DNA of 64,000 nucleotides from Candidatus Thiodubiliella sp. (GCA_029237605.1 JAQRGB010000023.1:87425-151424), one strand, 5' to 3'. Positions 3,185 through 57,994 are shown, numbered from the stretch's first letter. Made by a program: numbers and translations. The notes: a model not told the origin generated them from the sequence alone.

Positions 3185-3740
3185 GCATTATCTTCTCTAA
3201 ATCTGGAATATAATTATCCAAAGTTATATTTATCTCCTTGATATAAATACAGTTCACAGGGCATGCTGGGATACACAAATCACACCCAGTACATTCATCT
3301 CTAATAACCGTTGTCATTACCTTAGGGGCACCAACAAAAGCATCCACTGGACAGGCCTGAATACACAAAGTGCAGCCAATACAAAATTGCTCATCAACAA
3401 GTCGGATCGTAGCCATGTCGTTCTGTGAGCCAAGGAGTTGACTCTCTCCAAACTCCTTATTAAGTGGCAATGTTTCCACATTTAGTATCTGCGCCAAAGC
3501 ATCTATGCCATCTTGCCCACCAGGTGGGCATTGATTAATTTGCGCCTCACCTTTAGTGATTGCTATCGCATAAGAGCGACACCCTGTAAAATCACACTGC
3601 CCGCATTGTGTTTGTGGCAAAATAGCATCAATTTGGTCAACTAATGGATTGCCATTAACTTTAAATTTAATCGCCACATAGCCTAAAATTAAACCCAATG
3701 CTGAGGCCAATACAGAAAAAATAATAGCAGGAATAAGCAT
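3177..3740 (-). CDS. rnfB: Rnf electron-transport complex subunit B (contains adapter-derived codons)
   Basis: N-terminal TM helix, CGQCDFTGC cluster and two ferredoxin-type CxxCxxCxxxCP motifs. The residues [15 protein letters not shown] are translated from adapter block 3399..3447. Confidence 0.85.
   Translation of the reverse strand: MLIPAIIFSVLASALGLILGYVAIKFKVNGNPLVDQIDAILPQTQCGQCDFTGCRSYAIAITKGEAQINQCPPGGQDGIDALAQILNVETLPLNKEFGESQLLGSQNDMATIRLVDEQFCIGCTLCIQACPVDAFVGAPKVMTTVIRDECTGCDLCIPACPVNCIYIKEINITLDNYIPDLEKIMHG
3399..3447 (+). other. MGI/BGI DNBSEQ adapter (42-nt read-2 adapter plus 7 nt of index), assembly contaminant
   Basis: Exact AAGTCGGATCGTAGCCATGTCGTTCTGTGAGCCAAGGAGTTG followed by ACTCTCT, which is the reverse complement of the end of the index seen at 57976..57985. 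Confidence 0.92.
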
Positions 3741-4324
3741 TAAGCCAATCCACTAAAACCCATAAATGCCATTGACATTAGCCCTGCAGTAATAAGTGCA
3801 ATTGGCACACCTTGAAAAGCTAAAGGCACATTTGCACTGTCAATGCGCTCACGAATTGTTGAAAACAACACTAACACAAAGGAAAAACCAATTGCCGCAC
3901 CAAAACCATATACTATTGAGTCCAAAAATCCATTATTTTGATTAACATTCAGTAAAGCAACGCCTAGCACTGCACAATTTGTCGTAATCAATGGCAAGAA
4001 TACACCTAAAGACTGATGCAAAACAGGGGAAGTTTTATTCACAATTAATTCTGTAAAACCAACCACACCTGCAATAGTCACAATAAATGCAATAGTACGT
4101 AAGTATTCCATATCAAGTGGAGTCAAGATATAAGTATTAATCAAATAACTGCTTACACTCGCTAAAGTCAATACAAAGGTAGTGGCGAAACCCATACCAA
4201 TTGCAGTCTCAACTTTCTTTGACACTCCCATAAATGGACACAAACCCAAGAACTTTACTAAGACAAAATTGTTCACCAAAATAGTGCTAACAAGAATTAT
4301 AATGGCTACGATCCGACTTTTCAT
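3740..4324 (-). CDS. rnfA: Rnf electron-transport complex subunit A (5' end overwritten by adapter)
   Basis: Polytopic membrane ORF with conserved [21 protein letters not shown]. The first codons (MKSRIVA) come from the adapter fragment, so the true start is uncertain. Confidence 0.85.
4302..4319 (-). other. MGI/BGI adapter fragment (first 18 nt of read-2 adapter, reverse complement)
   Basis: ATGGCTACGATCCGACTT is the reverse complement of AAGTCGGATCGTAGCCAT. The insert-proximal end is retained. Confidence 0.8.
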
Positions 4325-4335
4325 AAATAGTGATT

Positions 4336-5073
4336 TTAACTTAAAAATAACCTCAAAAGCCCAAACGAACTAATTAATAATAATGCTAAGCCAATCCACT
4401 TTTTAAACTGTTGATCGTTCACAATAATTTTATTATGTAATTTAAGGCCTACCATATGTCCAATCGCCGCCACAGGAATTAACAATATAGATAATTGCCA
4501 ATCAATCATCACGTCCATTGCTACAAAAGTCAACATTTTTATACTCACTAATATAAACCACAATACAAATAAAGTATTACGTAGATATTGTCTCACAACA
4601 TGGCGCATAAATACCGTAACTATAAGTGGCGCACCAGTAAGTGAAATACCTGCTACATAACCACCAATAATCAATAATAATTTATCCACCCAAGGACTAT
4701 GTGAAGTAATTTTTTGATTAAAAATCCAAATAATTGCATAAAAAATTGTAACTGAATAAACAAATACAATCATCACTATATCAGATAATTCAATCAAACC
4801 AAATACCCCAACTAAAGTCGGTGGAATAATCCACATCAACGCACCTTTTAAATATCTCCAATCAACTTCTCTAATTGACTTTGATAAACTAAGTGATGAA
4901 AATAACAACAAATGAATGCCGATAACTGGTAACCAATAAACAGGTGACTCCCCAACTAATAACATCAACGGCAAGCCCAACGCTGCGCCACCAAACCCAA
5001 GGCCTGTGCGCACAAATCCTGTCCACATAAATATCAGCGAGATCATTAATAAATCAAAGTTTGAGAAATCCAC
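4336..5073 (-). CDS. TauE/SafE (DUF81) family anion exporter-like membrane protein
   Basis: 245 aa, multi-TM, with Gly-rich [12 protein letters not shown] motif near the N-terminus, typical of the family. Confidence 0.65.
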
Positions 5074-5353
5074 TACAAAATGACCAATTGGCTTTGCTTT
5101 AATCCTTGCATTGATTGAATAATTGATTTATTTTCTACCACCATGCCTATTTAATTTTAAATTATGTGAATAACTTTTTCCACCTAAATATTAAGTAAAA
5201 ATCTAAATTCTATCTTAAAAATAGATATAATATTATTGTTTTTATAGTATTTATGTTTAATACTATATTAAGCGATGTAATACTTTATACCAATAACTAG
5301 ATATTAGACTTTATTTTTCTATTTTTTAGAATAGAATATTTTAAATAAATAAC

Positions 5354-5716
5354 ATGAAAAAATATATAGTTAGTTTTATATCAATATTATCTCTTATGGT
5401 ATTAGCAGATTTTGACATTCTATATGTTCCAACAGACATAAAAGCAAAATACACTGTCATTCAAAATAAAAGGGTTGGAGATTTAGCCATACTACAAACC
5501 ATAAGAAAAAGTCCCTATGGGGTCTCATTTTCCACAAGATTATTTAACTGTAGCAAAGCTACATTTAAGTATTTAGTAGATGTAGAAGGTGAAAAAAATA
5601 TAAATATTTTCTTAGAAAGAAACAATAAAGCAATGGAATCTTTAAATGAATATAATATGACTACTTTAGTACGTGAGTCAATATCATATTATGTTTATAA
5701 ATATGCGTGTAAGTAA
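5354..5716 (+). CDS. hypothetical protein with signal-like N-terminus
   Basis: 120-aa ORF with a hydrophobic N-terminal segment in an AT-rich intergenic context. No recognisable family. Confidence 0.35.
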   Translation: MKKYIVSFISILSLMVLADFDILYVPTDIKAKYTVIQNKRVGDLAILQTIRKSPYGVSFSTRLFNCSKATFKYLVDVEGEKNINIFLERNNKAMESLNEYNMTTLVRESISYYVYKYACK

Positions 5717-5998
5717 ATAGTCACCTAGATAACTATTTATGCATCAGGTATTTTTAAGCATTAGATACTATAAAAACATAAAACAATAATTATTTTAATA
5801 TCAGCACATATTTACTAATGAATGAGATAAAAATACAAGAAAATAAAGTTAAAATTATCGATATAAAAATACCACTCATGTTCATGGTGGTATTAATGGT
5901 AAAAATTATTATCGCTTTAATGATACCAGGATTAATAATGCTAATTATTCTAATCTCACTCTAGTCTTTAGAATTGCTAGTGAGATTTAAGATTTATG

Positions 5999-56037: not shown

Positions 56038-56062
56038 GAACGACATGGCTACGATCCGACTT
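56021..56062 (-). other. MGI/BGI DNBSEQ adapter (full 42-nt read-2 adapter, reverse complement)
   Basis: Exact match, covering the 5S 5' end and the start of the 23S-5S spacer. Confidence 0.92.
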
Positions 56063-56666
56063 ATTAAAAAGTTTTTATATCTTAGTTATCGCTAACCAAA
56101 AGATATAACAATTAATACATAAAAAGTTTGTTGCTTATCAGCGTATTGCATGACACATCAACACAAAAATTACAGATTCATCTAAATAATTTGGGTGTTA
56201 TATGGTCAAGCCTCACGATCAATTAGTACATGTTAGCTTCACGTATCACTACGCTTCCACACCATGCCTATCAACCTCGTAGTCTTCAAGGGATCTTTAG
56301 GATAGTTAAACTATCAGGGAGACCTAATCTTGGGAGGGGCTTCCCGCTTAGATGCTTTCAGCGGTTATCCTTTCCACACATAGCTACTCGGCAATGCGAC
56401 TGGCGTCACAACCGAAACACCAGAGGTGTGTCCGTTCCGGTCCTCTCGTACTAGGAACAGCTTCCCTCAAGTCTCCAACGCCCACGGTAGATAGGGACCG
56501 AACTGTCTCACGACGTTCTAAACCCAGCTCGCGTACCACTTTAAATGGCGAACAGCCATACCCTTGGGACCTGCTTCAGCCCCAGGATGTGATGAGCCGA
56601 CATCGAGGTGCCAAACACTGCCGTCGATGTGAACTCTTGGGCAGTATCAGCCTGTTATCCCCGGCG

Positions 56667-56714
56667 AAGTCGGATCGTAGCCATGTCGTTCTGTGAGCCA
56701 AGGAGTTGACTCTC
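56667..56714 (+). other. MGI/BGI DNBSEQ adapter (42-nt read-2 adapter plus 6 nt of index)
   Basis: Exact 42-nt match plus ACTCTC. It replaces about 50 nt of conserved 23S sequence after ...CCTGTTATCCCCGG. Confidence 0.92.
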
Positions 56715-57430
56715 AAGACCTAGTTTCCTACCTGCTCGACGTGTCAGTCTCGCAGTCAAGCACCCTTTTACCTTTGCGCTCATTGCACGATGTCCGACCG
56801 TGCTGAGGGTACCTTTGTGCTCCTCCGTTACTCTTTAGGAGGAGACCGCCCCAGTCAAACTACCCACCATGCATTGTCCCCAATCCGGATAACGGACCTA
56901 GGTTAGAACCCCAACCATACCAGGGTGGTATTTCAAGGGTGGCTCCACTCAAACTAGCGTTCAAGTTTCAAAGCCTCCCACCTATCCTACACAAGTAAGA
57001 TCAGAGTTCAATGCAAAGCTGTAGTAAAGGTGCACGGGGTCTTTCCGTCTGGCCGCGGGTATACTGCATCTTAACAGCAATTTCAATTTCACTGAGTCTC
57101 GGGTGGAGACAGTGTGGCCCTCGTTACGCCATTCGTGCAGGTCGGAACTTACCCGACAAGGAATTTCGCTACCTTAGGACCGTTATAGTTACGGCCGCCG
57201 TTTACTTGGGCTTCGATCAAAAGCTTCGGATAAATCCTAACCTCATCAATTAACCTTCAAGCACCGGGCAGGCGTCACACCCTATACGTCCACTTACGTG
57301 TTTGCAGAGTGCTGTGTTTTTAATAAACAGTCGGAGCCACCTGGTATCTTCAACTCTTACCAGCTTCATTTAGCAAGTAAAATTACCGGCAAGAGCACAC
57401 CTTCTCCCGAAGTTACGGTGTCATTTTGTA

Positions 57431-57472
57431 CAACTCCTTGGCTCACAGAACGACATGGCTACGATCCGACTT
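57431..57472 (-). other. MGI/BGI DNBSEQ adapter (full 42-nt read-2 adapter, reverse complement)
   Basis: Exact match between the conserved 23S strings ...GAAGTTACGGTGTCATTTTG and CTCAAGCGCC.... Here the block is about 20 nt longer than the conserved sequence it displaces. Confidence 0.92.
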
Positions 57473-57943
57473 CTCAAGCGCCTTAGAATTCTCATCTCGT
57501 CCACCTGTGTCGGTTTGGGGTACGGTTTCATATAACCTGAAGCTTAGAGGATTTTCCTGGAAGCATGGTATCACTCACTTCTCCCAAAAGAGGGATCGTC
57601 ATCACGCCTTGAATAAAGGCTACCGGATTTTCCTAATAGCCAATCTACACGCTTAAACTTGGACAACCATCGCCAAGCTGAGCTAACCTTCTCCGTCTTC
57701 CCATCGCAGTTATATGAAGTACAGGAATATTAACCTGTTCCCCATCGACTACGCATTTCTGCCTCGCCTTAGGGGCCGACTAACCCTACGCCGATTAACG
57801 TTGCGTAGGAAACCTTGGACTTCTGGCGAGGGGGTTTTTCACCCCCTTTATCGTTACTCATGTCAGCATTCGCACTTCTGATACCTCCAGCGAACCTCAC
57901 AGTTCACCTTCAACGGCTTACAGAACGCTCTCCTACCATCATA

Positions 57944-57994
57944 AAGTCGGAGGCCAAGCGGTCTTAGGAAGACAAGGTAGAGAGTCAACTCCTT
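57944..57994 (+). other. complete MGI/BGI adapter junction: read-1 adapter (32 nt) + 10-nt index GGTAGAGAGT + first 9 nt of reverse-complemented read-2 adapter
   Basis: AAGTCGGAGGCCAAGCGGTCTTAGGAAGACAA-GGTAGAGAGT-CAACTCCTT is exactly the layout of a DNBSEQ library molecule. It replaces about 50 nt of 23S. Confidence 0.95.

Follow-up and report, generated by a model that had tools for sequence, protein, structure and literature searches.

The DNA considered here is a 64,000-nucleotide (nt) stretch from Candidatus Thiodubiliella sp. (GCA_029237605.1, JAQRGB010000023.1:87425-151424), hereafter the window, in which positions are counted from the first letter. It is an AT-rich (34.7% G+C) gammaproteobacterial segment that carries, in order, rnfCBA, tauE, glmM, folP, ftsH, the transfer-messenger RNA (tmRNA), ftsA, dusA, cysS, a recB/addA-like gene, argS, polA, and znuC, and downstream of znuC an operon of the form 5S-23S-tRNA-Ala-tRNA-Ile-16S. 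Its PolA has one fully identical (100%) counterpart at NCBI; the next closest relatives are from an uncultured gammaproteobacterium (85% identity) and Candidatus Thiodubiliella endoseptemdiera (80%), followed by Thioglobus species, which places the lineage in the SUP05/Thioglobaceae group. Between 3399 and 57994 this segment contains 18 short blocks, in both orientations, which are derived from two strings identical to the adapters of the MGI/BGI DNBSEQ sequencing platform. Apart from these blocks, the contig is a colinear SUP05/Thioglobaceae-type chromosome segment.

The two strings are a 42-mer of the adapter-2 type, AAGTCGGATCGTAGCCATGTCGTTCTGTGAGCCAAGGAGTTG (A2), and a 32-mer of the adapter-1 type, AAGTCGGAGGCCAAGCGGTCTTAGGAAGACAA (A1). 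The window was searched for them with up to three mismatches, by an exact prefix-extension scan, and by a 10-mer coverage scan, all of which agreed on 18 blocks (11 derived from A2 and seven from A1, including one composite at 57944), while 100 dinucleotide-preserving shuffles gave an expectation of 0. These are the same 18 blocks that a sequence-only reading of this DNA had tallied as 11, six, and one composite. Fifteen of them lie within genes or open reading frames (ORFs), 11 protein-coding and four ribosomal; the other three lie over the argS start, between genes, and at the rnfA start. The blocks are as follows:

3399..3447, plus strand: A2, 42 nt, and ACTCTCT (7 nt of the reverse-complemented index); inside rnfB (3177-3740, minus strand)
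4302..4319, minus strand: first 18 nt of A2; over codons 2-7 of rnfA (3740-4324, minus strand)
6721..6752, plus strand: full A1, 32 nt; inside glmM, which is split into two frames
8487..8528, minus strand: full A2, 42 nt; inside ftsH, with an in-frame stop from the forward adapter and a frameshift
9150..9199, plus strand: full A2, 42 nt, and non-native TTATCAGG; inside ftsH, with a frameshift
16997..17016, minus strand: first 20 nt of A1; inside ftsA, with a TAA stop at the junction
20140..20175, plus strand: first 36 nt of A2; read through in frame by an unknown ORF (19765-20382, minus strand)
24749..24790, minus strand: A2, 41 of 42 nt; in frame, close to the cysS C-terminus
27208..27235, plus strand: first 28 nt of A1; intergenic
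42539..42576, plus strand: first 38 nt of A2; inside the recB/addA-like helicase-nuclease gene
42847..42875, minus strand: first 29 nt of A1; inside the same recB/addA-like gene as the block at 42539
47947..47965, plus strand: first 19 nt of A1; over the argS 5' end
53301..53342, plus strand: full A2, 42 nt; inside znuC, which is split
53926..53947, minus strand: first 22 nt of A1; read through in frame by an unknown ORF (53834-54493, plus strand)
56014..56062, minus strand: full A2, 42 nt (from 56021), and non-native TTATCAG; in place of the 5S rRNA 5' end
56667..56714, plus strand: full A2, 42 nt, and ACTCTC (reverse-complemented index); inside 23S rRNA
57431..57472, minus strand: full A2, 42 nt; inside 23S rRNA
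57944..57994, plus strand: composite of A1, 32 nt, GGTAGAGAGT, and CAACTCCTT; inside 23S rRNA

Eight copies are truncated, to 18, 19, 20, 22, 28, 29, 36, and 38 nt. According to the exact prefix-extension scan, every one of them (8/8) keeps the insert-proximal AAGTCGG end and has lost the distal end, a one-sidedness that had been claimed from the sequence and is borne out. Block 24749 departs from A2 only at the base nearest the insert, its first. Two reading frames of the forward 42-mer contain stops and no frame of its reverse complement does, again as had been read. A few short matches elsewhere in the window are not adapter: 8-mers of AAGTCGGA at 36323 and 60245 are chance or native 16S sequence, and the 10-mer CAAGGAGTTG at 3045-3054, within rnfC, equals the end of adapter 2 by chance, with no adjoining adapter sequence.

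The identity of the strings, which the sequence-only reading had proposed, is now documented in print, and a full-text search finds one or both of them in 58 papers. The left and right adapters of the BGISEQ-500 are printed as exactly the A1 and A2 strings (PMC10788357), and both are listed as the "MGI sequencing adapter left/right" according to the manufacturer's information (bioRxiv 10.1101/2020.03.22.002840). Base for base, the 32-nt string of the window is the published left adapter and the 42-nt string the published right one. In addition, the window retains the order of a sequencing library, that is, adapter, 10-nt index, and other adapter arm, with one index present in both orientations. 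In the composite block (57944-57994), A1 (32 nt) is followed by the index GGTAGAGAGT at 57976-57985 and then by CAACTCCTT. This had been described as an exact library layout; the order holds, but a complete second adapter is not there, as CAACTCCTT is only the first 9 nt of the reverse-complemented A2. The reverse complement of GGTAGAGAGT follows A2 as ACTCTCT at 3441-3447 and as ACTCTC at 56709-56714, so these two blocks (3399 and 56667) do extend into the index, as had been claimed.

The same adapter is found in unrelated public records. The A2 42-mer occurs in one of 5426 complete E. coli genomes (NWU_1, NZ_CP121294.1, 4801815-4801856, ending 23 nt before the record end) and in four of 50,697 phage records, those of a Stenotrophomonas phage, an Acinetobacter phage, and two Pseudomonas phages (PQ358089.1, 25731-25772; PQ374146.1, 33-74; OR188719.1, 219-260; OR188720.1, 4-45); no copy of the A2 string was found in PLSDB plasmids or IMG/VR contigs. 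In all five records the 42-mer lies no more than 260 nt from a record end. Three of them, E. coli NWU_1, Stenotrophomonas phage TPWB-10, and Pseudomonas phage LPPA36 (NZ_CP121294.1, PQ358089.1, and OR188719.1), show A2, a 10-nt word, and the reverse complement of A1, an arrangement that the composite block of the window has on its opposite strand. The 10-nt words after A2 differ by record (GGGCAAGCTA, GATTCCGTCC, and CTTGATATGG) and are followed by TTGTCTTCCTAAG..., the start of the reverse-complemented A1; we take GATTCCGTCC to be the reverse complement of MGI barcode 2. Thus one E. coli and four phage records described as complete carry the same MGI adapter contamination. In two of the phage records the 42-mer lies under a feature annotated as "similar to hypothetical protein", and in the E. 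coli record it lies under a coding sequence that spans the record start.

How the blocks relate to the native sequence was measured as the length between conserved anchors in the window and in an orthologue, which was possible at 11 sites. The main comparator was a syntenic contig (L001) of a Thioglobus metagenome-assembled genome (MAG), whose FtsH has 89% amino acid identity. In rnfB, 49 nt stand in place of about 28 nt (net +21, in frame), which gives seven extra codons relative to the Thioglobus RnfB of L001. RnfA begins with MKSRIVA where L001 and the NCBIfam profile have MNEY (net +9). In glmM, the window has 35 nt against 33 nt for orthologue residues 191-201 of L001 (net +2, frameshift). 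In ftsH, as compared with the FtsH fragments P0001 and P0002, the block at 8487 accounts for 43 nt in place of 33 (net +10), with LGPLA at the junction, and the block at 9150 for 50 nt in place of the 48 nt that encode residues AATNRPDVLDPALLRP in P0002 (net +2, frameshift). The ftsA block at 16997 adds about 6 nt net relative to the FtsA profile, with the same frame on both sides, and in cysS 16 residues correspond to 12 in the CysRS of E. coli and Coxiella (net +12). In znuC the window is 5 nt shorter than the orthologue in four SUP05-like contigs (L085-L088; 77-82% nt identity), with a frameshift. The three 23S blocks were compared with E. coli: at 56667 there are 52 nt against 56 nt between conserved anchors (net -4), at 57431 there are 44 nt in place of the conserved 23-nt AGAACUCGGGUGAAGGAACUAGG (net +21), and at 57944 there are 59 nt against 54 in both E. 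coli and the Rfam consensus (net about +5), with helix pairs lost. In 5S rRNA the adapter takes the place of the 5' strand of helix I and breaks its pairs (Rfam, E. coli), and there the net change is not measurable.

Native sequence is therefore missing at 11 of 11 measurable sites. The losses range from 9 to 52 nt, and the net change ranges from -5 to +21, never the +32 or +42 of an added string. The longest direct repeat flanking a block is 2 nt, equal to that at 20,000 random positions, so no target-site duplication is present. The earlier statement that the blocks overwrite a similar length of sequence rather than being inserted with duplications is upheld as to native loss and the lack of any duplication longer than 2 nt; "similar length" holds only approximately. 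An exact same-length overwrite of the consensus, considered as a candidate, is ruled out by the net changes of up to +21 nt.

Alignment to orthologues, which had been proposed as a check, showed that the corresponding sites in relatives are without blocks. The blocks are absent at ftsH, glmM, rnfA, and rnfB in L001 and in an ENA contig (L002), and at znuC in L085-L088, where the respective stretches are intact; they are likewise absent from the 23S and 5S of E. coli and from the Rfam consensus. No adapter 16-mer occurs in L001 or L002, in the four polA-znuC contigs L085-L088, or in 80 unrelated polA loci. The only 16-mer match among the fetched loci was the E. coli NWU_1 record, which had been fetched because it bears the adapter.

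The flanks of the blocks are colinear at every tested site: rnfB, rnfA, glmM, ftsH (both blocks), ftsA, cysS, argS, znuC, the recB-like gene (both blocks), 5S, and 23S (all three). For instance, the 270-nt island enclosed by the blocks at 42539 and 42847 falls, on the family profiles, between their N-terminal and C-terminal portions. A mis-join of ftsA and dusA at 16997 had been suspected, as the ftsA ORF lacks 86 N-terminal residues and lies beside dusA; it was rejected on finding the N-terminus (start at 17219) upstream of the block and in the same frame as the remainder. The TAA that stops ftsA consists of two native bases and the first adapter base. A deletion or mis-join between tauE and rnfA at 4302 was rejected as well, since that junction is separated from the adapter by about 12 nt on the insert side; it thus falls within the span of a single read and is contiguous native sequence. 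The local mis-joins that the sequence-only reading had allowed for were not found, as each testable junction is colinear with an orthologue or a family profile.

These data suggest, with a probability that we put at about 97%, that the blocks are 3' read-through tails of untrimmed MGI/BGI DNBSEQ adapters and hence an artefact rather than biology. The evidence consists of the identity with the adapters, the library layout, the one-sided truncation, the loss of native sequence, the colinear flanks, and the absence from orthologues, and it sustains the view already reached from the sequence, that of a sequencing-adapter artefact and not a mobile element. A read longer than its insert would pass into the adapter (adapter 1 for read 1, adapter 2 for read 2) and from there through the 10-nt index of the sample and into the opposite adapter arm, up to the end of the read. 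Such reads would have tails of any length, each beginning with AAGTCGG. The A1 tails come from read 1 and the A2 tails from read 2, and their cut points differ as those of read ends do. Since adapter prefixes occur only at the 3' ends of reads, a de Bruijn graph alone cannot build a path from native sequence through a prefix and back into native sequence; a pure graph path of this kind was rejected, as k-mers leading from adapter into native sequence should not exist. A later step would therefore have written the tails in. The likely cause is a post-assembly step that was fed untrimmed reads and that would have written tails of 18-51 nt into the consensus, each replacing a roughly similar true stretch; candidates for this step are the closing of gaps between ordered contigs, the polishing of a draft with short reads, and the merging of contig ends. 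The ends of the tails partly resemble the sequence that they replaced (AAGTCGG for AACTCGG, and AAGGAGTTGTA for AAGGAACTAGG at 57431), which fits an alignment-driven join.

Several points weigh against this interpretation. The software step is one that we infer only. Net gains of 10 to 21 nt at five sites are at odds with a simple same-length overwrite of the consensus. The index GGTAGAGAGT, its reverse complement, and a possible second index gave no match in a text search of the literature. Six full-length copies of A2 are not followed by the ACTCTC index, and the next base is T in all six. Two of these (9150 and 56021) have in common the non-native TTATCAG, at 9192-9199 and 56014-56020, and two of the six have TACAAAA in common. 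TTATCAG(G) may be what is left of a putative second sample index (..CCTGATAA), and putative additional indexes, pooled with the first, would explain both shared words.

With 18 copies per 64 kb, in both orientations and partly read through in frame, the blocks could pass for a miniature mobile element or an intragenic repeat family spread chromosome-wide. However, the copies are identical to two synthetic adapter oligonucleotides and are accompanied by a sample index in library order. They have no target-site duplications, and neither string has terminal inverted repeats: the 42-mer begins with AAGTCGGA and its reverse complement with CAACTCCT, and the reverse complement of the 32-mer begins with TTGTCTTC. 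An element would have added its own length, whereas native sequence has been deleted at all measurable sites, and truncation is one-sided in 8/8 copies. Helix I of 5S, conserved segments of 23S, and ftsH are destroyed by the blocks. The blocks are also absent from all orthologous sites, and the strings turn up near record ends in E. coli and phage assemblies. The mobile element is thus effectively refuted, its probability being close to nil. The chance is just as negligible that the blocks are physically in the DNA of the organism, which would mean that synthetic adapter DNA had entered the symbiont chromosome and spread in it.

Two other readings also start from the adapters and locate the fault elsewhere. 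Adapter k-mers are common to many reads and could give false edges, so that the adapters would form a hub in the assembly graph that joins unrelated loci and the contig would be a mosaic of mis-joins; the glmM-rnfA gene order, which is unlike that of the Thioglobus MAG, could be taken in its favor. On the other hand, the two flanks of each testable block belong to one gene or rRNA, whose order and orientation are preserved across the block, the tauE-rnfA junction is native sequence lying within the span of a single read, and neither 5073 nor 5999, where the gene order departs from that of the MAG, is a block boundary, which makes such a mosaic very unlikely. Alternatively, chimeric library molecules (concatemers of insert, adapter, and insert) might have been assembled faithfully, in which case the library, though not the genome, would truly contain the blocks. 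Ligation libraries do give rise to chimeras through their adapters, and the segment 57431-57994 resembles a whole library unit, with an adapter arm, a 471-nt insert, and then adapter 1, the index, and the start of the other arm. Yet short reads could not read through an insert of 471 nt. Random joins would be expected between unrelated fragments, and here the same gene always lies on both sides, a few tens of nt apart. Ligation joins whole adapters, so that a ligated molecule cannot have native sequence directly after an adapter prefix of 18-38 nt. We consider faithfully assembled chimeras extremely improbable.

Read-through tails left in the consensus have direct consequences for the annotation. 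The stops, frameshifts, and odd peptides beside the blocks in rnfA, rnfB, glmM, ftsH, ftsA, cysS, the recB-like gene, argS, and znuC are artefacts, as are the damaged 5S and 23S rRNA helices. At least nine protein genes, together with the 5S and 23S rRNAs, seem broken or altered through the blocks alone, and in a symbiont-type lineage such breaks could pass for genome erosion or pseudogenization. Protein databases, too, are contaminated by the peptides that the adapters encode. A density of 18 blocks in 64 kb makes it probable that the assembly is affected throughout, and it should be screened again or rebuilt from trimmed reads. The blocks themselves are relevant as quality control only; their value lies in flagging a contaminated public assembly.

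The window has other irregularities as well. A second frame break in glmM (minus strand), with no block nearby, lies in the A-rich run CACAAAAAATAAAAATTCC (7200-7215), which is 2 nt longer than in the Thioglobus MAG; the break may reflect either an assembly error of the homopolymer type or a genuine lesion. Between 40477 and 41486 (minus strand), two consecutive ORFs match LptC (profile positions 2-113 and 98-175); the matched parts are separated by about 310 additional nt, no adapter is present, and lptC looks split or partly duplicated. The gene order at 4324-5999 differs from that of the Thioglobus MAG (L001, 3167-5052). An AsnC-type regulator and a DUF934 gene separate tauE from rnfA in the MAG. 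In the window, tauE and rnfA are directly adjacent, and glmM is separated from tauE by about 930 nt that include an ORF at 5354-5716 (plus strand). On the minus strand, argS is flanked by an AAA_21 and DUF4276 ORF at 45134-46255 and by two short ORFs at 48337-48944, one of which has an RVT_1 reverse-transcriptase fragment; these may be remnants of a defense or retroelement locus.

Among known systems, the blocks invite comparison with miniature inverted-repeat transposable elements (MITEs) and repetitive extragenic palindromic (REP)-like repeats, which are likewise short, multi-copy, present in both orientations, and sometimes found within genes. Unlike these, the blocks are synthetic in sequence, have neither terminal inverted repeats nor target duplications, entail a loss of native sequence, are truncated on one side, and are absent from relatives. 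Illumina or vector contamination of the kind flagged by VecScreen or FCS-adaptor belongs to the same class of artefact, in that a synthetic oligonucleotide gives rise to false gene breaks; the oligonucleotides in the window are those of a different platform. The nearest counterparts are the contaminated E. coli and phage records, which have an identical 42-mer in unrelated hosts. Those records have a single copy no more than 260 nt from an end, whereas the window has 18 internal copies in 64 kb, mostly truncated tails that overwrite native sequence in genes and rRNAs. Such internal, overwriting copies are better explained by gap filling, polishing, or merging than by contig ends that were simply left untrimmed; the artefact is of a well-known type, here unusually dense and internal.

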